DNA of 64,000 nt from the NCBI GenBank assembly GCA_016187225.1, contig JACPKC010000004.1, forward strand, positions 17,004-81,003, read 5' to 3'. The translations under genes and the position numbers were made by a program. This DNA is from Candidatus Berkelbacteria bacterium. GTDB lineage: Bacteria; Patescibacteriota; UBA1384; JACPKC01. Below, in pieces: positions 7,060 through 39,532 of this stretch. Position 1 is the stretch's first letter. Every line of letters starts with the position of its first letter. Under the pieces are notes generated by a model. That model made no database searches. It was not told the DNA's origin and was given only the letters and a program-made list of their open reading frames with translations.

Positions 7060-8409
7060 ATGAAGCTTTCGTTCTATGGAGCGGCGGGTGAGGTAACCGG
7101 CAGTAACTACTTGCTTGAAGCAAAAAACGCCTCTCTAATGGTGGATTGCGGCGCATTTCAGGGGGGCAAAGAGCAAGAGCTTAAAAATGCCGCGCCTTTT
7201 CTTTTTAATCCTAATATAGTTGATTCTTTTATTTTGACTCACGCTCATCTTGATCACGTTGGGCGGGTGGCGAAACTCGTCAAAGATGGCTACCGAGGTC
7301 ATATTTGGTGCACGCCGGCCACCATGGAACTCGCCGAACTTATTATGCTCGACGCGGCTAAGATCATGAGTCACGAAGAGCTTAAGTTTGGCGATGAGCC
7401 GCTATATCATGAACAAGACGTCTATCGCGCGCTCCGCCAGTTCAAAACTCTTGACTATGAAACTAAAATCGAGATCGCGCCCGGGATCGAGGCGCGTTTA
7501 GTCGATGCGGGTCATATTCTTGGTTCAGCTTCGGTGGAAGTGTGGGCAGGAGGCAAGAAGTTGCTTTTTTCAGGCGATATTGGCAATAAAGGAGCGCCGA
7601 TTATTAAAGACCCGAACCGAGTGGACGAGGCGGATTACGTGATTTGTGAGTCAACCTATGGCGGCCGCACGCATGAATCGATTGAAGATCGTCGGGTCAT
7701 TTTAAAAACCGCAATTGATCACTCGATTGCCAAGGGTGGAGTGCTTTTGATCCCAGCTTTTGCGCTCGAACGAAGCCAAGAGTTGCTCTATGAACTTCAC
7801 GATTTACTCACGAACCACAATATTAAAGCCCTGCCAATTTTTCTCGATTCCCCTCTAGCTATCAAAACGACTGAAGTTTTTGGTCATTTTCCCGAGTATT
7901 ACGACAACGAAGCAAAGGAAATTATTCATACCGGCAAGGATTTTTTCGAATTGCCCGGCTTACAATTCACGGAGACGGTTGAACAGTCAAAGCGGATCAA
8001 TAAGACTCCACCGCCCAAAATGATTATTGCCGGTTCGGGAATGATGACGGGTGGGCGGATTCGCTATCATCTAAAAGAGTATCTCGGCAGTCCGCAGACA
8101 ACGATTTTAATTGCCGGCTATCAAGTTAAGGGCACGCTCGGGCGCCGAATTCTAGATGGCGTGAAGACCGTTGATCTTTTTCATGAACCAGTTGCGGTCA
8201 AAGCAGAAGTGATTGCTTGCGGCGCATTTTCAGCTCATGCCGACCATAAACAACTCATGGATTGGCTCACAAGCGTTAAAACGCCCGTGCGTCAGATTTT
8301 CTTTACTCACGGCGATCGGGAAGGGTTGGTCGCGCTCGAGCAGGCGGTCTCAAAAGAACTCAACTGGCAGACCCACATTCCCCGTTTTGGCGAACATATC
8401 ACTTTGTAA
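7060..8409 (+). CDS. MBL-fold beta-CASP metallo-hydrolase (RNA-metabolising)
   Basis: HAHLDHVGR motif with beta-CASP-like downstream regions, about 450 aa. Confidence 0.7.
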   Translation: MKLSFYGAAGEVTGSNYLLEAKNASLMVDCGAFQGGKEQELKNAAPFLFNPNIVDSFILTHAHLDHVGRVAKLVKDGYRGHIWCTPATMELAELIMLDAAKIMSHEELKFGDEPLYHEQDVYRALRQFKTLDYETKIEIAPGIEARLVDAGHILGSASVEVWAGGKKLLFSGDIGNKGAPIIKDPNRVDEADYVICESTYGGRTHESIEDRRVILKTAIDHSIAKGGVLLIPAFALERSQELLYELHDLLTNHNIKALPIFLDSPLAIKTTEVFGHFPEYYDNEAKEIIHTGKDFFELPGLQFTETVEQSKRINKTPPPKMIIAGSGMMTGGRIRYHLKEYLGSPQTTILIAGYQVKGTLGRRILDGVKTVDLFHEPVAVKAEVIACGAFSAHADHKQLMDWLTSVKTPVRQIFFTHGDREGLVALEQAVSKELNWQTHIPRFGEHITL

Positions 8410-8921: not shown

Positions 8922-9553
8922 CTCCGACGCTTGTGCCAGCGATTTTAGCAAAGACATCAGCGGAATTGGCACTCCAATTCGACCAAGTGCGAAATTTGAG
9001 CTCACTCTTGAGCTATGATGTCGCTGATGGTCAGTTTGTACCCAGTCTCACTCCGTCCCCGCGTGATTTTCCACAAACATCTAAGGCAGAAATCTTTTGG
9101 CATTTGATGGTGGAAAAACCTTTGGAATTCATCGATGAATGCTTAGCTTTACCGACAAAAATCATTGCCGTCCAGGCAGAGGCCGGCGGGGCGCCAGCAG
9201 CCATTGAGAAGTTAGCAAGTTCACCTGTTTTAACTGGTTTGGTTGTTAACCCGAGCACGCCGGTGCGCGCGTTGGAGCAATTTTTACCCCAAGTCGATTT
9301 GATTCAAATTATGACTGTTATCCCGGGTGCTCAAGGCCAACATTTTTTACCGGCAATGTTGCCTAAGTTGAGCCAGCTCCGTTGCCTGAAGTCTGATCTA
9401 ATGCTGGCAGTCGATGGTGGGGTGAGTAGTGCTACAATTGAGTCAGTCCTACGTTATCGGCCCGATTATATTGTGGTGGGAAGCGCTCTAACGCGCGCGC
9501 GCGATCCAGCTGAAGAGTGGCGCGTTTTGAGTCGTTTGGTTGCCGCAAGTTAA
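8918..9553 (+). CDS. rpe: ribulose-phosphate 3-epimerase family protein (divergent)
   Basis: YDVADGQFVP, HLMV, QVDLIQIMTVIPGAQGQHF and VDGGV align with Rpe motifs. The first metal-binding His positions are replaced by Y and Q. Confidence 0.55.
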   Translation: MTPTLVPAILAKTSAELALQFDQVRNLSSLLSYDVADGQFVPSLTPSPRDFPQTSKAEIFWHLMVEKPLEFIDECLALPTKIIAVQAEAGGAPAAIEKLASSPVLTGLVVNPSTPVRALEQFLPQVDLIQIMTVIPGAQGQHFLPAMLPKLSQLRCLKSDLMLAVDGGVSSATIESVLRYRPDYIVVGSALTRARDPAEEWRVLSRLVAAS

Positions 9554-9569
9554 GCGCAAGAGGAGGGGT

Positions 9570-10397
9570 GTGACGATTTGTGAGCTTGAGAAGCAAGCGA
9601 ACGCAATTCGGCAAGACATTATTAAGATGCTTGTCAGAGCCGGTTCTGGTCACTCGGCCGGCCCGCTTGGGATGGCCGATGTTTTTACCGCACTTTATTT
9701 CAATTCACTCCATCATAAGCCAAAACAGCCAACTTGGTCGGAGCGCGATCGAGTCGTGCTTTCAAACGGTCATATCTGTCCGGTGCTCTACGCCACTCTT
9801 GCCCATGCGGGTTATTTCCCAAAAAAAGAACTGTTCACCTTACGCGCTTTTGGCACACGACTTCAAGGACATCCGCATCGCGGAACTTTGCCGGGAATTG
9901 AAACTACCTCGGGGCCGCTTGGCTCGGGTCTCTCGCAGGCCGCCGGAATGGCGCTTGCCGGTCGGATGGACGCCGCTCGCTGGCGAGTTTATTGTTTGAT
10001 GTCTGACGGTGAGCACGACGCTGGCAACACCTGGGAGGCAGTAATGTTTGCTGGCAAGGAAAAATTCTCGAATCTGACGGCAATTTTGGATCGGAATAAT
10101 ATTCAAATCGATGGTTTTACAGAAGATGTTATGCCGCTTGAGCCACTCGCGGAAAAATACCGCGCCTTCGGTTGGCAAGTCTTGGAAACCGATGGGCATA
10201 ATATCAAGGCGATTATCGATTCAGTTAATCAGGCGCGTTCAACTTTTGAGCAACCAACGCTGATTCTTGCGCATACGATTCCGGGCAAGGGTGTGAGTTT
10301 TATGGAGCAGAGATTTGAGTGGCATGGCAAGTCGCCAAATAAAATCGAAGCCCAAAAAGCCCTCCATGAGCTCCGCACCTTGCAAGGTAAAATTTGA
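9570..10397 (+). CDS. tkt: transketolase, N-terminal (TPP-binding) subunit
   Basis: GSGHSAGPLGMADVF and GHPH motifs. GTG start 3 nt after AGGAGG. The track ORF extends back to a TTG at 9540. Confidence 0.8.
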   Translation: MTICELEKQANAIRQDIIKMLVRAGSGHSAGPLGMADVFTALYFNSLHHKPKQPTWSERDRVVLSNGHICPVLYATLAHAGYFPKKELFTLRAFGTRLQGHPHRGTLPGIETTSGPLGSGLSQAAGMALAGRMDAARWRVYCLMSDGEHDAGNTWEAVMFAGKEKFSNLTAILDRNNIQIDGFTEDVMPLEPLAEKYRAFGWQVLETDGHNIKAIIDSVNQARSTFEQPTLILAHTIPGKGVSFMEQRFEWHGKSPNKIEAQKALHELRTLQGKI

Positions 10398-10404
10398 GGG
10401 GAAC

Positions 10405-11355
10405 ATGAGTAGTCTAGAACGAGTGCCAATTCGGGATGGTTACGGCGACGGTTTGCTGTTAGCTGGCAGGCAAAATCCTAGTGTAGTCGCATTGTGTGCC
10501 GATCTAACTGAATCAACGCGAACAGAGCTGTTTGCCAAGGCTTTCCCCAAGCGATTTGTGGAGATTGGGGTTGCCGAGCAGAACTTGGCAACGGTGGCTT
10601 CAGGCTTAGCCGCGGCCGGAAAAATTCCTTTTATGACCAGCTACGCAAGTTTTTCGCCGGGCCGAAACTGGGAACAAATTCGCACCACCATTTGCTACAA
10701 CAACCAGCCTGTGAAGATTATTGGTTCACACGCGGGAATCTCGGTCGGTCCTGACGGTGCGACTCATCAAGCGCTTGAAGATATTGCGCTTATGCGAGTG
10801 CTGCCGAATATGACTGTGCTTGTGCCCTGTGATCATATTGAGGCGCGGAAAGCCACACTCGCGACTCTCGATCATCCAGGCCCGGTGTATCTGCGCTTGG
10901 CGCGCGAACCAACGCCTGTACTCACCACCGAATCAACGCCGTTCAAGATTGGCCAAGCGCAAGTTTATAAATTGGGCACAGACGTGAGCTTGGTTGCCTG
11001 CGGCCCGCTTGTATATGAAACGCTTATCGCCGCCGAAGAGCTCGCTCTTAAAAAAATTTCTGCTCGGGTGATTAATTGTCATACGATTAAACCCTTAGAT
11101 GAAGCAACTCTGCTTGCCGCTTTCCAAGAAACTGGCGCTGTGGTTACGGTTGAGGAGCATCAGATGGCTGGCGGCTTGGGTGGCGCGATTGCTGAATTAG
11201 CGACTCAATACGCGCCAGTGCCGATCGAAAGAGTTGGTGTGCGTGATCGCTATGGCGAATCCGGTCCGCCAGAGATTTTGTTGGAGCATTTTCATCTGAA
11301 AGCGCGTGATATTACAGCGGCGGCAGTGCGCGCCCTTAAGCGCAAGGAGGCATGA
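10405..11355 (+). CDS. tkt: transketolase, C-terminal (pyrimidine-binding/C-terminal domain) subunit
   Basis: ATG after a GAGGGG ribosome-binding site. EIGVAEQN and a transketolase C domain. The gene is split from the N-terminal subunit. Confidence 0.85.
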   Translation: MSSLERVPIRDGYGDGLLLAGRQNPSVVALCADLTESTRTELFAKAFPKRFVEIGVAEQNLATVASGLAAAGKIPFMTSYASFSPGRNWEQIRTTICYNNQPVKIIGSHAGISVGPDGATHQALEDIALMRVLPNMTVLVPCDHIEARKATLATLDHPGPVYLRLAREPTPVLTTESTPFKIGQAQVYKLGTDVSLVACGPLVYETLIAAEELALKKISARVINCHTIKPLDEATLLAAFQETGAVVTVEEHQMAGGLGGAIAELATQYAPVPIERVGVRDRYGESGPPEILLEHFHLKARDITAAAVRALKRKEA

Positions 11356-29802: not shown

Positions 29803-31485
29803 TTAATCTCCCCGATACCCACTTTGAGTATCTTCCGGCCAAATAGTATCCTTACAGTTCTTCCGGTATTGATCTAATTCAGTTTGAATGATATTTCTCT
29901 GATCCATGCCGAAAATTCCATAGTAACTTCCTGCATCGCCATAGACACGACGAGGACAAGGGTTAGCACTCGAAGCGGGGGCGCTTGCAGAATCATTTTT
30001 ACTATTTTTATTAAAAACAGACCAAATAAGTATTATCAAGAATACTGAACAGATCACTAAAGCAACAATAATCATTTTGTTTGCTTTGTGGATCGCTAAG
30101 ATGATGGCGACAAAAATTACCAAAAGCGTACCGACGGCGATTAGGGTGAGTAGTAAATTTGAATTTGAATTTTTTGTTGACTGACCTTGTGTAGCGAATG
30201 AGTTTTGTACGGCTGGTCCCTGGCCAGAACCGATTGCATAAAGACTCCCGGCGATCGATGTAAAATAAATCGTACCGTCAGAGCCGATTGCCGGCGATGA
30301 GTCAACTCCGCTTGAGACAGGTATTTTCCACTTTTCTTTTCCATCTGGAGAATAGGCGTAGAAGTAATTTGCTAAAGTTCCAAAATATATTGTGCCGTCG
30401 GAACCGAGTGCCGGTGATGAGCTTAGAGCCTCATATTGATTTGGAGTTTGTGAGCGCCAAAGCTCCTTGCCGCTTGTATCGTATCCGTAAAAAATTCCTC
30501 CCCAGTCACCGAAAAAGAGCTTAGAGTCATTTGAAAGTGCCGGAGTAATGCTTAGTCCGTTTTCAAAAGGCGTTCGCCATTTTTGCTCTCCATCGGAAGT
30601 TAGAGCATAAGCAAAAGCTTTTCGTGGATCCTTAGCGCCCTTGGCGAGAAAATATATCGTCCCGTCAGGCCCGATCATTGGAGAACCCTCTTGAACGCCT
30701 TCCGGAGGATTGAATTTCCATTTAATTTCTTTGTTAGTAGTTATTGCGAAGAGCATATTGGCACAATTGTTATCTGCGCAATCGTTCGCTGAAACTAAGA
30801 TAGTACCGTCATCGGCAATAGCTGGTGTTCCATTGACCCACGAAGAGCCGCCTGGGTCCCAGCTCCACTTTAGGCTTCCATCTGGATTAAATGCATAAAA
30901 ATAAGAAGGTCTCTCTTGCGGTCTGCCGGTTTCAGTTGGCGGATAGAGTTCGCTACCCACATAGATCGTTCTATCAAGTCCAATGGCTGGAGTTGGCCAG
31001 GCATTTTTAAAAGTAAAAACAGGATATTTCCATTTTTCACTTCCGTCAGATGTTATAGCATAAAAATTGCCACTCATCGGCAAAAAATAAATTGTTCCAT
31101 CATTACCTATTGTTGGAGAACCTTGAGCACAGCTTTCGCCACCCCATTCGATAGAACGCACTGGCTCGCCGCCTTTGAATTTCCACTTTAAACTCCCATC
31201 TTGATTGATCGCATAGAGATAACATCGGTGATCGGCGAAATAAATCACACCTTTTGCGTCAATAACAGGAGATGTTTCTATCTGCCCTTCGGCTTTGAAT
31301 TCCCATTTGATAGTGCCATTAGTTTTTGAGGTATCGTACTTAGATTGTCCAGTTAACTTTCGATCACCGTGGAACACTGGCCAAGATGAATCGGCAAGAC
31401 CAGAGATAGTAGCAAGAGACGTTTCTGTTTGAATAAAAAGAGCGACAAATAATCCGAGAATGGCGAGTGACTTTTTAATTTTCAT
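29803..31485 (-). CDS. PQQ-like beta-propeller repeat surface protein with C-terminal TM helices
   Basis: Signal peptide. Repeated DGS(L/E)KWK(F/Y) and GTIYF motifs. Two C-terminal TM helices and a cytoplasmic tail. Confidence 0.6.
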   Translation of the reverse strand: MKIKKSLAILGLFVALFIQTETSLATISGLADSSWPVFHGDRKLTGQSKYDTSKTNGTIKWEFKAEGQIETSPVIDAKGVIYFADHRCYLYAINQDGSLKWKFKGGEPVRSIEWGGESCAQGSPTIGNDGTIYFLPMSGNFYAITSDGSEKWKYPVFTFKNAWPTPAIGLDRTIYVGSELYPPTETGRPQERPSYFYAFNPDGSLKWSWDPGGSSWVNGTPAIADDGTILVSANDCADNNCANMLFAITTNKEIKWKFNPPEGVQEGSPMIGPDGTIYFLAKGAKDPRKAFAYALTSDGEQKWRTPFENGLSITPALSNDSKLFFGDWGGIFYGYDTSGKELWRSQTPNQYEALSSSPALGSDGTIYFGTLANYFYAYSPDGKEKWKIPVSSGVDSSPAIGSDGTIYFTSIAGSLYAIGSGQGPAVQNSFATQGQSTKNSNSNLLLTLIAVGTLLVIFVAIILAIHKANKMIIVALVICSVFLIILIWSVFNKNSKNDSASAPASSANPCPRRVYGDAGSYYGIFGMDQRNIIQTELDQYRKNCKDTIWPEDTQSGYRGD

Positions 31486-31491
31486 TATCTG

Positions 31492-32367
31492 CTAAAGTTC
31501 CGGATAGCCAAAAATCGGAATTTCATAGTTGCCATATTTCCAGACACGCTGGCTCTTCTCTGGAGCGGGCGTAAAAATATTATCAATTGGTTGCGCACTT
31601 GATTTAGGATCGACATAAACACCATCGCCACAATTTGTGATGATGTTATTTTTGATAATTTGCGATCCAGCAATAGACGCTATGCCGGTATGGCAATCAT
31701 CTATCATATTGCCTGAAACTTCTTGATCGCTGTTGAACTTAAGATCAATCCCCTCGTGTCCCGCGTCAGATAAATAATTTTTAATTATTTTGATATTTGA
31801 GTTAGCCGACGATATCGCTCCCCACAGAGCGTGTCGAGATATAGTATTTTGGATAACGCTATTTGGCTGTTTTCCAGTCGGGTTAATTCCGTTGCGAGTA
31901 TATTCAACAGTAACATTGTCTACGATACTCTCATCGCCTTGAAAGATTATCGCCTCCCAATCAGCTAAATTTGGTTTTTTTTCCGCAGATGTGAAGACAA
32001 TGGGTTTCGCTTGTTCACCTTTGGCGATGATTTTTTTTAAAATAAAAAGACTAGAGTGAGTGGTTGAATACGCTTTGAGTCGTGTTGGGTCTTTGTCGTT
32101 AAAACCATCTGGCGGTATTTCGTCCCCCCAATGGCGATCATCCCCAACAGAAAATTTAATCGTCGTTCCAGGTAAAACAGTCAGGTCCCCTAGAATTACA
32201 ATATCCCCGGTAACGAAAATGTTATCACTCCAAACCTGATTGCCGATAAACCACCCGCTTATAGAAGCATTGGATGTTTGGGTTGTTGAAAAAAATTTGT
32301 AGGTGGTGAAGATAATAATAAAAACTATAATTATCAGCAAAATATATGATATTTTTTTCCAGTTCAT
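31492..32367 (-). CDS. secreted right-handed beta-helix repeat protein
   Basis: N-terminal TM. Parallel beta-helix-like repeats NCGDGVYVD and DDCHTGIAS. Confidence 0.4.
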   Translation of the reverse strand: MNWKKISYILLIIIVFIIIFTTYKFFSTTQTSNASISGWFIGNQVWSDNIFVTGDIVILGDLTVLPGTTIKFSVGDDRHWGDEIPPDGFNDKDPTRLKAYSTTHSSLFILKKIIAKGEQAKPIVFTSAEKKPNLADWEAIIFQGDESIVDNVTVEYTRNGINPTGKQPNSVIQNTISRHALWGAISSANSNIKIIKNYLSDAGHEGIDLKFNSDQEVSGNMIDDCHTGIASIAGSQIIKNNIITNCGDGVYVDPKSSAQPIDNIFTPAPEKSQRVWKYGNYEIPIFGYPEL

Positions 32368-32458: not shown

Positions 32459-32533
32459 TGGCTCCGGGGGTAGGATTCGAACCTACGATTTCCACGTCCA
32501 GAGCGTGGCGTCCTGCCGCTAGACGACCCCGGA
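32459..32533 (-). tRNA. tRNA-Gln (anticodon CUG)
   Basis: A 75-nt cloverleaf with a TTCGAAT T-loop, the anticodon loop CUCUGGA, and an encoded CCA. Confidence 0.85.
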
Positions 32534-32552: not shown

Positions 32553-34346
32553 TTACGCGACACTAGCCATGAGCCGGGCAAATTCTTCGCGTTCGATAGT
32601 TTCTTGCTTTAGAAGTTTTTCAGCAATTTTTTTGAGCGTTGCCTTATGTTTGGTGAGAAGGGTGCGAGTTTTTTGCTCGGCCTCGAGAATAATTCGGCGC
32701 ACTTCAGAATCAAGTTGGGCGGCGATCGTTTCAGAGTAATTGTGTTCGTCGCGGAAATCTCGACCCAGAAAAACTAATTCGTCGCGATGGCCAAACTGGA
32801 TTGGTCCCAAAGCTTCGCTCATGCCATAAACGCGTACCATATCGCGGGCGATTTTAGTCGCTTTTTTCAAATCATTTTCAGCGCCTGTCGTTGTTTCATT
32901 AAAGATCAATCGTTCAGCCTCGCGCCCGCCTAAAAGAGAAGCGATCTCATCTTCAAACTTGCTCTTTGTGACCAGTCGTCGATCTTCCTCGGGCAAGCTC
33001 CAGGTATAACCAAGGGCTGATCCGCGCGAAACGAGCGAGATTTTATGGATTGGATCGGTATTGGGCAGTAAATGGCCGACAAGCGCGTGTCCCACTTCAT
33101 GGTAGGCGGCAACCTGTTTTTCTTGTTCGTTCATGAGTTTGCTTTTACGCTCTGGCCCGATCAGCACTTTCTCGATCGCGTGATTAAAAGTCTGCTGATT
33201 CACTTCCTTAAGACTATCGCGCGCCGCCAAAATAGCCGCTTCATTGACGATATTTTTAAGGTCGGCGCCCGAGGCGCCTGGGGTGGCGCCGGCGATATGC
33301 TCTAAGTTTATATCTTTAGCAATCGGCTTGTTATTCATGTGGAGTTTAAGAATTTCTTTACGTTCTTCTCGGTCAGGGAGCTCCATGATGACGCGTCGAT
33401 CAAAGCGACCCGGTCGCAAGAGCGCTGGGTCGAGAACATCGGGTCGATTAGTGGCCGCGATTACAATGACGCGCGCATCAGTTTCAAAACCATCCATCTC
33501 CACCAAGATTTGATTGAGAGTTTGTTCGCGTTCATCATGACTGCCTCCAAGCCCCGTGCCGCGCTGACGACCAATCGCATCGAGTTCATCGATGAAGATC
33601 ACGGCTGGCGCATTCCGCTTGGCTTTTGAAAATAGATCACGCACGCGCGACGCCCCCACGCCAACAAACATTTCCACAAATTCAGAAGCTGAAAGCGAGA
33701 AGAATGGCACCTTAGCCTCGCCGGCCACGGCTTTGGCGAGAAGAGTTTTACCGACACCAGGAGGCCCAACAAGCAGAACGCCTTTAGGGATCTCGGCGCC
33801 GATCTCGGCATACTTTTTTGGATTTTTGAGAAAGTCAACAACCTCGATCAGTTCCTGCTTGGCTTCACGCGCTCCCGCCACGTCTTTAAAGGTAATTTTC
33901 TTTTTGCCTACAAATAACCGCGCTTGAGATTTACCAAACGAAAGGGCGCGCATACTGCCAGCTTGAGCTTGGCGCAAGATGAACCAGAGCAAGAGCCCAA
34001 CAAAAATAAAGGGCAAAAACAGAGAAATCAGCGAACCCAGAAGCGCGCCGCTGGCGGGATTTTCGATTTTAATTGAAACTTTTTCAGGCGTGATGCCGTA
34101 GTCAGTTAAGCTAACGCCAGCTTCCTTAAAAGTGCGTAGTTTGGTTCCATCTGCCAGCTCGGCGATCACCTCTTCATTGTCGACAGTTACTTGACGGATT
34201 TGGTTTTCTTTAACAAGTTGGGCAATTTCTGAAATCGTTGATTCTTTGGGCGTGGAACTGTCATTTCGAATCAACCCAAAAAGCACCAGACCAGCCAGGG
34301 CTAAAAAAATGAGCGTAAAAATCGAGCGATTTAGTTGAGGATTCAT
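32553..34346 (-). CDS. ftsH: ATP-dependent zinc metalloprotease FtsH
   Basis: N-terminal TMs, AAA Walker A (GPPGVGKT), SRH, and HEXXH (HEVGH). Confidence 0.95.
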
Positions 34347-34349
34347 ATT

Positions 34350-34424
34350 TGGTGGCTCCGGGAGGATTCGAACCTCCGACCCACGGCTTATGATGCCGTT
34401 GCTCTACCGCTGAGCTACAGAGCC
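34350..34424 (-). tRNA. tRNA-Met (anticodon CAU), elongator-like
   Basis: A 75-nt cloverleaf with a G1-C72 pair, a TTCGAAT T-loop, anticodon loop AUCAUAA, and an encoded CCA. It starts 4 nt upstream of the ftsH start codon. Confidence 0.85.
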
Positions 34425-34442
34425 AAGCAGAGCTTTTTAATT

Positions 34443-34516
34443 TGGGCGCGGGGCCAGGATTTGCACCTGGGACTGAGGCTTATGAGACCTCCATGTTGCT
34501 ACTACACTACCCCGCA
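34443..34516 (-). tRNA. atypical tRNA with CAU anticodon (Met/fMet/Ile2 candidate)
   Basis: A 74-nt cloverleaf with a U1.G72 pair, C73, a T-loop reading UGCAAAU (G at position 55), no G19 in the D-loop, anticodon loop CUCAUAA, and an encoded CCA. Confidence 0.55.
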
Positions 34517-34560: not shown

Positions 34561-34989
34561 TCAGGATTTGCTCCGGCGGTGAAGAAGCCAGTTAATCCAT
34601 GTTTGGGCATTTGAACTTGCTTTATCAAAAAACCCTTTAGCTGTATCTGTTTGTGTATCTTTGGCAACTACCGGGAATTCAGTCGTTTGTGATTGATTGT
34701 CGCGGTTTTTGGCAATTAAAACAACAGTTTCACCGGGTCGTTTTAGACCCAATCGGCGGCGCGCTTCCAACTCACGATACGCCGTGCTTTGATAGTAAAA
34801 AATCTGATTTTTTAAATATGCAAGCCGATACTCCAAGGTTTCAATATCCTCTTTAAGTTGACGAATCTGTTCACTGATGGAGTAGTTTTTTTGGATTGCT
34901 CGGCCAAGGTTAATAAATACATAACTTAACATAAGCACTGCTAGTGTTCTGATCACAATCAAACCTAGACGAGCTTGAATTCGCGCCAT
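34561..34989 (-). CDS. septum formation initiator family protein (FtsB/DivIC-like)
   Basis: N-terminal TM, a coiled coil, and an ELEARRRLGLKRPGE signature. Confidence 0.6.
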   Translation of the reverse strand: MARIQARLGLIVIRTLAVLMLSYVFINLGRAIQKNYSISEQIRQLKEDIETLEYRLAYLKNQIFYYQSTAYRELEARRRLGLKRPGETVVLIAKNRDNQSQTTEFPVVAKDTQTDTAKGFFDKASSNAQTWINWLLHRRSKS

Positions 34990-38321: not shown

Positions 38322-38396
38322 TGGTGACCCCAGGGGGAGTCGAACCCCCGTTCCCACCGTGAGAGGGTGATGTCCTAACCACTAGACGATGAGGCC
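38322..38396 (-). tRNA. tRNA-Glu (anticodon CUC)
   Basis: A 75-nt cloverleaf similar to E. coli tRNA-Glu, with anticodon loop CUCUCAC, a TTCGACT T-loop, and an encoded CCA. Confidence 0.85.
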
Positions 38397-38464
38397 CTAA
38401 ACCGAAGTAGTTTATCAAGCATGGACGACGCATTCAATTATATTGTATACTTTGTGCCGCGCAG

Positions 38465-38540
38465 AGGCCCGTAGCTTAGTGGTTAGAGCAGTCGGCTTAT
38501 ATCCGACCGGTCACAGGTTCGAATCCTGTCGGGCCTACCA
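38465..38540 (+). tRNA. tRNA-Ile (anticodon UAU)
   Basis: A 76-nt canonical cloverleaf. Acceptor AGGCCCG/CGGGCCU with A73 and CCA, anticodon stem GUCGG/CCGAC, loop CUUAUAU, and a TTCGAAT T-loop. Confidence 0.75.
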
Positions 38541-38551
38541 AAATTCTTTTT

Positions 38552-39532
38552 ATGTTTCACAAAAATTTTTTTACCTTTACTGCGCATGACAATGCCGATC
38601 TGGGCTTCCAGATGGGTAAGGTTTTTACTGCCCAGGCTCGGACGGGAATTCAGCGTGCTCGTCGGCACAAGAACTGGTCGGCCAAGCGTGTTCGCGCTCA
38701 AAAATTTCTTGTCTTCCAGACACAATACTTTCCAGAGTATTCAGAGGAATTGCAGGCTTACGCAAAAGGTGCGCACGTTGATTTTCTCGATCTCTTCACG
38801 TTGAGTCTAGAGGATGAGGTAGAAGATCGGCTTACTGAGCACTGCACAACTGTAATTACAGACGACGGCTTCCTCTTGGCGCATAATGAAGATGAAAACG
38901 AAATTTCGGAAGACCAAATTTGTGTTGTGCAAAAAACGATTGAGGCGCTAACACTTTTTGAGCTTTATTATTACAATACTTTAGGCGGTAATTCAGTCAC
39001 AGTTAACTCCCATGGTTTCGTGATCGCGATTAATTCGCTCTCCTCAAAGGCTTTACAAGTCGGGGTGCCCAGAAATGCGATCGCCCGATTTTTTTCAGAA
39101 ACGAACGACCCAGAACGCGCGCTTGCGAAACTTGACGTTTTGCCTCGCGGCGCTGGTTACAGCATCAATATCGTCAACGCCAAGCAAGAAGTTTGGAACA
39201 TTGAATACAACTCAAAGTCTGTTTCAGTGACGCGCCCTACGCTACCTTTCGTCCACACCAATCATCATCTTTCTCATCTTAAAGCTGATGAAGCCAATTT
39301 GGGCGAGAGTTCGCGTAACCGTTATCGAATGGCCTCTAAATTAGTGCGCGCGCAGATGACGCCGATGAGCCTCTTTGGCCTGATGGCAGATACCTCAAAC
39401 GGAGCTGAAATCAGTTTGACGAATCGGCATACCGTTGCCCGGATCATAGTCGAGCCGGCGGCGGCCCAGATTTGGCTCAAACGAGAACGTTTAAGCGGCG
39501 CCCTTACTTATCCTCTGACTCTCTTGAAATAA
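38552..39532 (+). CDS. Ntn-hydrolase family protein (C45/acyl-CoA:6-APA acyltransferase-like)
   Basis: About 325 aa with an internal EHCTTVITDDGFLLAHNED segment that looks like an Ntn-hydrolase Cys nucleophile. The ATG lies 12 nt after the 3' end of tRNA-Ile. Confidence 0.4.
   Translation: MFHKNFFTFTAHDNADLGFQMGKVFTAQARTGIQRARRHKNWSAKRVRAQKFLVFQTQYFPEYSEELQAYAKGAHVDFLDLFTLSLEDEVEDRLTEHCTTVITDDGFLLAHNEDENEISEDQICVVQKTIEALTLFELYYYNTLGGNSVTVNSHGFVIAINSLSSKALQVGVPRNAIARFFSETNDPERALAKLDVLPRGAGYSINIVNAKQEVWNIEYNSKSVSVTRPTLPFVHTNHHLSHLKADEANLGESSRNRYRMASKLVRAQMTPMSLFGLMADTSNGAEISLTNRHTVARIIVEPAAAQIWLKRERLSGALTYPLTLLK

Follow-up and report, generated by a model that had tools for sequence, protein, structure and literature searches.

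Lysidine synthesis by TilS is generally regarded as essential and nearly universal among bacteria, and it is the usual bacterial route for reading AUA codons, the modified anticodon being the CAU of tRNA-Ile2. A genomically encoded UAU anticodon is known from Mycoplasma mobile and a few other bacteria (PMC3575796, PMC1635315). Both the lysidine route and these precedents had been named in the original prediction for the DNA studied here, and both are borne out by the literature. Published counts stood at nine species without tilS and with a TAT gene in 2013 (PMC3575796), 19 species with a TAT tRNA gene in 2014 (PMC4013482), and 17 genomes in 2021 in which a 'tRNA-Ile3(UAU)', a name taken from tRNAscan-SE 2.0, replaces tRNA-Ile2 (PMC8450103). 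Here we describe the tRNA-Ile(UAU) gene ('tRNA-Ile3') at positions 38465..38540 (+) of a 64,000-nucleotide stretch of contig JACPKC010000004.1 from a Candidatus Berkelbacteria bacterium, which is referred to as the window. This gene belongs to the known minority class of bacterial tRNA-Ile(UAU). We consider it likely that its product is a functional, vertically inherited tRNA that reads AUA without lysidine, probably as the sole AUA decoder of its host.

The tRNA-Ile(UAU) gene and its conservation

A 76-nt tRNA-Ile cloverleaf with the anticodon UAU in a CUUAUAU loop, A73 and an encoded CCA end had been read from the sequence, and ARAGORN, Rfam and direct reading agree on all of these points. 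ARAGORN found five tRNA genes in the window and, for the one at exactly 38465-38540 (+), returned tRNA-Ile with the anticodon TAT and no other isotype. The Rfam model RF00005 spans 38465-38537 over its full length with 72.8 bits (E 5.4e-14; gathering score 29), which makes this gene the top-scoring tRNA match of the window. Read directly, the 5' half is AGGCCCG / UA / GCUU-AGUGGUUA-GAGC / A / GUCGG-CUUAUAU-CCGAC and the 3' half is CGGUC / ACAGG-UUCGAAU-CCUGU / CGGGCCU / A / CCA. The fold has an acceptor stem of 7 bp (A1-U72), A73, a genomic CCA and a 7-nt anticodon loop, C32-U33-U34-A35-U36-A37-U38, with UAU at positions 34-36. A sigma-70-like promoter candidate (TGGACG-18-TATACT) at 38422..38451 (+) ends 13 nt 5' of the gene. 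It matches the consensus at 9 of 12 positions, the scan having returned three sites where 0.5 were expected in shuffles, and this consensus match points to a putative promoter function.

The window is a chromosome segment of an uncultured bacterium of the Candidate Phyla Radiation (CPR/Patescibacteria). NCBI entries under the name Candidatus Berkelbacteria bacterium match its GroEL and FtsH with 100% identity, the closest relatives of both proteins are labelled Berkelbacteria or 'Patescibacteria group', and GroEL and GlmS are also present in the Logan assemblies of SRR12113420 and SRR12113424. Orthologues of tRNA-Ile(UAU) are found at the syntenic site in three further Berkelbacteria assemblies (loci L124, L125 and L126; FtsH 74-75% identical), where the common block reads PyrG-VanW-DUF3006-HppA-[tRNA-Glu(CUC), tRNA-Ile(UAU)]-...-large surface protein-DivIC-[tRNA(CAU), tRNA(CAU)]-FtsH. 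Four more distant CPR genomes (FtsH 62-65% identical) retain the DivIC-tRNA-tRNA-FtsH part, and in three of these four (L129, L131 and L132) a tRNA-Ile(UAU) gene lies within 10 kb of ftsH. Three independent Berkelbacteria assemblies share an identical anticodon arm, GUCGG-CUUAUAU-CCGAC, and in L124-L126 the 1:72 pair and the T stem show compensatory changes. In an alignment of seven orthologues all 21 stem pairs are kept (147 of 147 cells are standard pairs), and 13 of the 21 vary on both sides in a compensatory manner. None of 500 shuffles matched the observed pairing values, and sliding the partners abolished the signal. The UAU anticodon, G3-C70 and U12-A23 are invariant across the seven. 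These results show that tRNA-Ile(UAU) is a canonical tRNA under purifying selection and a conserved norm, a fixed trait of this CPR lineage. The identical arm and the maintained cloverleaf exclude a sequencing error, a pseudogene and a recent mobile acquisition; in particular, the anticodon error that the original prediction had named as a possible refutation is ruled out by the invariance of UAU.

The identity of the tRNA was assessed from positions known to distinguish isoleucine tRNAs. U12-A23 and C29-G41 are identity pairs of the E. coli isoleucyl-tRNA synthetase (IleRS), whose identity set was reportedly defined by Nureki et al. in 1994. Both pairs are present in tRNA-Ile(UAU), together with the Ile-type features G3-C70, C4-G69, C5-G68 and A73, and its acceptor stem is close to that of E. 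coli tRNA-Ile(GAU), AGGCUUG...CAGGCCUACCA. Methionine and formylmethionine tRNAs carry C3-G70 and isoleucine tRNAs G3 or A3 with C70 or T70 (Silva et al. 2006, PMC1635315), and C4-G69 and C5-G68 are frequent in tRNA-Ile2 (PMC1635315). Among the matches listed from the database scan described below there are 112 distinct tRNA(UAU) genes, none of which has C3-G70 (G-C in 94, A-U in 11 and U-A in 7) and 108 of which have A73.

The codon read by such a tRNA is in use. The 47 open reading frames of the window contain 97 AUA codons, which corresponds to 5.4 per 1000 codons and 7.8% of the isoleucine codons. GroEL and FtsH together contain four AUA codons. In alignments of the two proteins with 60 homologues each, all four fall in Val/Ile columns, one of which has Ile in every one of the 60 sequences, and none falls in a Met column. 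Since AUA codons are used and align with Ile/Val columns, AUA is a rare but genuine isoleucine codon that needs a decoder. Twenty of the 97 AUA codons are located in a pair of neighbouring genes at 29803-32367 (-) whose products are secreted or surface proteins, one with pyrroloquinoline quinone (PQQ)-like beta-propeller repeats and one specifying a right-handed beta-helix-like protein. This is the lowest-GC stretch of the window (0.42 versus about 0.48), so that AUA demand is concentrated in a segment that may have been acquired.

The two CAU tRNAs and the place of tilS

The original prediction pointed to two CAU tRNAs at 34350-34516 and suggested that the genome may carry both AUA-decoding solutions or be in transition between them. 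The two genes are real: ARAGORN places them at 34350..34424 and 34443..34516, both on the minus strand. The interpretation finds no support, as the gene distal to ftsH (34443..34516, here CAU_A) is an orthologue of initiator tRNAs and the ftsH-proximal one (34350..34424, here CAU_B) is most simply an elongator tRNA-Met. An initiator and an elongator CAU tRNA are the minimum for any bacterium, and the pair therefore gives no sign of a second AUA-decoding system. The Ile-type features expected of a CAU tRNA that serves as a TilS substrate are lacking in CAU_A and probably also in CAU_B.

CAU_A, detected by ARAGORN and Rfam, is strongly remodelled. It has U1.G72, C73, U11:A24, U31.G39, the T-loop UGCAAAU and a D loop without GG; among the features by which initiators are recognised it shows G12:C23 and a weak U1.G72 pair and deviates at U11:A24, U31.G39 and C73. 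Its orthologues in the closest relatives have U1-A72 (L124:9759-9833, L125:9697-9770, L126:9575-9648), whereas its positional orthologues in L129-L132 are canonical initiators (CGCGGGG...CCCCGCU-A-CCA) with a C1xU72 mismatch, A73 and A11:U24. The T-loop UGCAA is already found in two canonical-initiator orthologues of the distant CPR genomes. In the alignment of this family (A2), 20 pairs were followed, of which 11 are compensatory and none is broken. We regard CAU_A as an initiator tRNA that, by orthology, would have been remodelled in Berkelbacteria, because its positional and sequence orthologues in distant CPR genomes are textbook initiators. The C1xA72 mismatch, A11:U24 and A73 are the formylation determinants of bacterial initiators. 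All three are changed in the Berkelbacteria initiator, so that formylation may be altered or lost in this clade. For comparison, a U1-A72 pair occurs in 1.5% of initiators, and A11:U24 is kept in all initiator genes save one divergent tRNA (PMC1635315).

The same alignment shows a tertiary covariation. The T-loop UGCAA, in which G55 replaces the universal U/Psi55, is invariably accompanied by the D-loop UAG, in which A replaces G18, and the canonical UUC T-loop always occurs with a UGG or AGG D-loop. The split is six against three without exception, the window CAU_A, L124-L126, L129 and L132 standing against L130, L131 and E. coli metZ. This pattern suggests that in the remodelled initiators the G18-Psi55 elbow contact could be replaced by an A18/G55 pair. 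A strongly remodelled initiator beside ftsH is the most interesting by-product of this study.

CAU_B (71.6 bits in Rfam) is conserved in all eight genomes, that is, the window and its seven relatives. It resembles E. coli metT in having C3-G70, U4-A69 and A73, and nearly all of the eight genomes are alike in this respect. These positions identify it as most probably an elongator tRNA-Met rather than tRNA-Ile2. A profile hidden Markov model built from the 112 tRNA(UAU) genes was tried as a test between tRNA-Ile2 and tRNA-Met and was dropped, E. coli tRNA-Met and tRNA-Ile2 scoring 52.6 and 53.8 bits, respectively.

In many bacteria tilS is located just upstream of (hpt-)ftsH. Here, ftsH (32553..34346, -; identified by translation) anchors the conserved block DivIC-tRNA(CAU)-tRNA(CAU)-FtsH, the upstream edge of which is formed by a gene for a DivIC/FtsB-type septum formation initiator (34561..34989, -; Pfam PF04977, E 1.3e-10) that is present in all seven related loci. 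The annotation of Southlakia epibionticum, a cultivated Saccharibacterium, lists FtsH (0729)-TilS (0730)-...-tRNA-Met (0733)-...-tRNA-Met (0739)-DivIC (0740) (Wang et al. 2023, PMC10633639), and this TilS-positive genome has three 'tRNA-Met' genes, one tRNA-Ile gene and no UAU gene (PMC10633639). In none of the eight genomes is tilS found in the conserved ftsH-proximal slot. Within 10 kb of ftsH, the seven relatives have no gene with the PF01171 domain, and none of the eight genomes has a third CAU tRNA. There are no tilS, ileS or tRNA-modification genes among the genes of the window, and tilS is also missing from the approximately 8.5 kb past the window edges, so that about 72 kb of the genome are covered in all. 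A tblastn search with E. coli TilS gave no matches in the window, in the 8.5 kb past its edges or in about 1.1 Mb of loci, a search with little power given the little sequence available per genome. Within the library searched, no relevant paper on CPR/Patescibacteria with TilS, lysidine or tRNA-Ile(UAU) was found. Altogether, the results fit a loss of tilS, which is more likely absent from this genome than present.

Proposed decoding of AUA and its alternatives

We propose that tRNA-Ile(UAU) would be transcribed from its own putative promoter and, once matured, be charged by IleRS. U34 would pair with the A of AUA, which would thus be read without lysidine. AUG would presumably be spared, by analogy with described systems, since a U34 that is unmodified, or at least not xm5-modified, should bind G-ending codons weakly and tRNA-Met should compete for them. 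The tRNA is taken as the probable sole decoder because the CAU pair is an initiator plus a probable elongator tRNA-Met, and because tilS is missing from the DivIC-tRNA-tRNA-(tilS)-ftsH block. The two bacterial UAU tRNAs studied by experiment, that of M. mobile (PMC3575796) and that of a B. subtilis suppressor of a tilS deletion (PMC3919564), both have an unmodified U34 and bind AUA much more strongly than AUG, and the B. subtilis suppressor misincorporates at about 1 in 1000 (PMC3919564). The synthetase is adapted in such cases, with an Arg at the W905 position in M. mobile and an IleRS2-type enzyme in Bifidobacterium and Neorickettsia (PMC3575796). No ileS gene was found in the window or in the approximately 8.5 kb past its edges.

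The wider tRNA set of CPR bacteria fits this proposal. CPR genomes are without an inosine wobble system and have separate GCG, UCG and CCG tRNAs for Arg (PMC8629427), and the annotated CPR genome of S. epibionticum lists MnmA and no MnmE or MnmG (PMC10633639). The window itself encodes two C34 isoacceptors, tRNA-Glu(CUC) and tRNA-Gln(CUG), as would fit a tRNA set in which G-ending codons are read independently of modified-U34 wobble. Together, the absence of inosine, the C34 isoacceptors and the lack of MnmE and MnmG suggest a strategy of one tRNA per wobble class with few U34 modifications, in which a UAU tRNA would naturally be A-specific. It is speculation that the unusual combination of C32 and U38 tunes the codon affinity. 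A broader idea is that Berkelbacteria, and possibly much of the CPR, have rebuilt the whole AUN box, with loss of TilS, a UAU tRNA with a C32/U38 loop, and an initiator without the three formylation determinants and with an A18/G55 elbow. We put this forward tentatively, as possible but on balance doubtful.

Several points weigh against a lysidine-free sole decoder. Position 38 is U and not the A38 used by E. coli IleRS, and U38 occurs in just 3 of the 112 distinct tRNA(UAU) genes among the matches listed; charging by IleRS is deduced from the features of the tRNA alone. The comparison of AUA codons with homologues comprises four codons. The assignment of CAU_B to Met rather than Ile2 depends on few positions, E. 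coli ileX also having C3-G70, and the profile of UAU genes has no power to split Met from Ile2 for this tRNA. Finally, the visible part of the genome is about 72 kb, and tilS or a third CAU tRNA could lie elsewhere. The last point is the basis of the strongest alternative, namely that the UAU tRNA is extra or transitional, with tilS and a tRNA-Ile2(CAU) encoded elsewhere. Such redundancy is documented in bacteria, both systems being present in Lactobacillus plantarum and L. casei (Taniguchi et al. 2013, PMC3575796), and TilS is present in at least one CPR lineage. Nevertheless, eight genomes have neither tilS in the ftsH-proximal slot nor, within 10 kb of ftsH, a third CAU tRNA, the TilS-positive CPR genome used for comparison carries a single tRNA-Ile gene, and small CPR genomes would be expected to retain redundant translation parts only seldom. 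We therefore regard redundant decoding as unlikely, albeit the one alternative of real weight.

A reading in which the UAU tRNA is not Ile-specific, AUA having been reassigned (for instance to Met or Lys) or the tRNA being charged by another synthetase, could draw on the departure of U38 from the E. coli IleRS identity set and on the code changes known in CPR lineages (PMC8629427). It is very improbable in view of the AUA codons, which fall in Ile/Val and never in Met columns, and of the tRNA itself, with its A73, G3-C70, C4-G69, U12-A23 and C29-G41 and its acceptor stem near that of E. coli tRNA-Ile(GAU). That the gene is an artefact or a passenger (an error of sequencing or assembly in the anticodon, a pseudogene, or a tRNA borne by a phage or mobile element) might be suspected from the metagenome-assembled source and from a XerC-type recombinase gene some 20 kb away. 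This view is effectively refuted by the identity of the anticodon arm in independent assemblies, by the selection that holds the whole cloverleaf, by the conserved housekeeping block PyrG-VanW-HppA-tRNAs-...-DivIC-tRNAs-FtsH and by a GC content that is flat across the locus. The vertically inherited, lysidine-free AUA decoder thus remains the explanation we favour.

For the window alone, the result mostly amounts to a correct annotation, of an ordinary-looking member of a minority class already known. If tilS is truly absent from the uncultured lineages with such a tRNA, antibacterial ideas that target TilS and lists of 'essential genes' would fail for a large share of bacterial diversity, and the CPR would provide many natural tests of the ways in which ribosomes and IleRS separate AUA from AUG without a modified cytidine. 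If the AUN box has indeed been rebuilt, lysidine-free AUA decoding would rank as a major strategy of bacteria instead of being a curiosity confined to nine to nineteen species, and there would be a hint of altered initiation, possibly without formylation, in the clade.

Occurrence, genomic surroundings and described systems

A genomically encoded tRNA-Ile(UAU) had been called rare. This holds for cultured bacteria and fails for uncultured ones: a scan of one genome per GTDB species with the pattern AGAGC-N6-CTTATA-N7-GGTC-N4-GTTC, for which we estimate about one chance match in the collection from its 20 fixed bases and the collection size, gave at least 120 loci. Of the 120 listed, 117 contain a tRNA(UAU) according to ARAGORN; the source genome of the window is not among them. 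The matches listed follow the order of the scan, and their label counts are therefore not frequencies. By record title, 68 of the matches listed belong to CPR taxa, including Saccharibacteria, Parcubacteria/Paceibacteria and Kaiser-, Taylor-, Nomura-, Uhr-, Falkow-, Dojka-, Shapiro-, Woese-, Peri- and Kuenenbacteria. The remainder are labelled as metagenome-assembled genomes (MAGs) of 'Uncultured Gammaproteobacteria' (10), Planctomycetota (7), Archaea including DPANN types (6), Chloroflexota (5), Dormibacterota (2), actinomycetes (2), other labels (6) or unclassified (14). The scan shows that UAU isoleucine tRNAs are widespread in uncultured lineages.

Some of these loci have conspicuous neighbours. 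An ileS-tRNA(UAU) module in the CPR was considered and rejected, as the E. coli IleRS tblastn matches there are valyl-tRNA synthetases by NCBIfam in seven CPR cases; valS adjoins tRNA-Ile(UAU) in seven CPR-type or unclassified loci (L013, L040, L045, L051, L063, L086 and L099). By contrast, ileS directly adjoins tRNA-Ile(UAU) in two DPANN-type archaeal loci (L046 and L071), the two among at least six archaeal loci that carry an IleRS gene. In a Thermoguttaceae MAG (L025; JAXGPP010000005.1, 72001-80000), tRNA-Ile(UAU) is one of 35 tRNA genes within 8 kb, an array that also contains one odd 93-nt tRNA call with a 4-base anticodon.

In the window, the divergent neighbour of tRNA-Ile(UAU) is tRNA-Glu(CUC) at 38322..38396 (-; ARAGORN and Rfam), and this pair is kept in the three closest Berkelbacteria. 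On the other side, the ATG of a gene for a C45-family autoproteolytic acyltransferase/hydrolase (38552-39532) lies 12 nt past the 3' end of the tRNA. No terminator-like site is present between the two (38540-38552), and co-transcription is possible; the C45-family gene is missing at the corresponding position of the related loci. The other C34 isoacceptor, tRNA-Gln(CUG), is located at 32459-32533 (-; ARAGORN). The housekeeping genes of the window encode GlmS, a split transketolase, a class II aldolase, TrpRS, GroES/GroEL, EF-P, YchF, XerC, PyrG, FtsH and a membrane H+-pyrophosphatase. The transketolase is divided into N- and C-terminal genes at 9540-11355 (+), as is common in CPR and archaea. 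With the NCBIfam 'type VII CRISPR Cas14' model, a gene for a beta-CASP/metallo-beta-lactamase ribonuclease at 7060-8409 (+) reaches 407 bits, where the cut-off is 800, and with archaeal aCPSF1 it reaches 311 bits; its product is probably a generic RNase J/CPSF-like enzyme rather than a CRISPR component.

Among the described systems, the Berkelbacteria tRNA most resembles tRNA-Ile2(UAU) of M. mobile, which is likewise a genomic bacterial UAU tRNA with Ile identity that serves a used AUA codon free of lysidine (PMC3575796, PMC1635315). M. mobile has neither tilS nor tRNA-Ile2(CAU), whereas for the Berkelbacterium about 72 kb have been seen and the loss of tilS is unproven. Furthermore, M. mobile belongs to the Tenericutes and the Berkelbacterium to the CPR, with a loop CUUAUAU (U38) in place of the M. 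mobile loop, which we take to be CUUAUAA (A38). The unmodified U34, the IleRS Arg865 adaptation and the ribosomal exclusion of AUG have been shown experimentally for M. mobile, and the Berkelbacterium is known from sequence. As a lineage trait, the UAU tRNA recalls Bifidobacterium and Neorickettsia, where it replaces tRNA-Ile2(CAU) and TilS across genera (PMC3575796) and where charging has been attributed to a eukaryote-type IleRS2 (PMC3575796). The tRNA-Ile(TAT) genes of L. plantarum and L. casei are comparable in that a UAU tRNA is found amid otherwise standard translation (PMC3575796); these species keep tilS, whereas the Berkelbacterium is without it at its conserved position. In the B. 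subtilis tilS-deletion suppressor, tRNA-Ile1(G34U) reads AUA strongly and AUG weakly and supports near wild-type growth (Kohrer et al. 2014, PMC3919564). That tRNA is a laboratory mutation of the GAU tRNA, whereas the Berkelbacteria tRNA is a naturally fixed separate gene. Lastly, the same anticodon solution is found in archaea, in Nanoarchaeum equitans, Korarchaeum cryptofilum and DPANN MAGs, which are likewise reduced, symbiotic or uncultured, and there the alternative is agmatidine synthesis by TiaS, as it is lysidine synthesis by TilS in bacteria.

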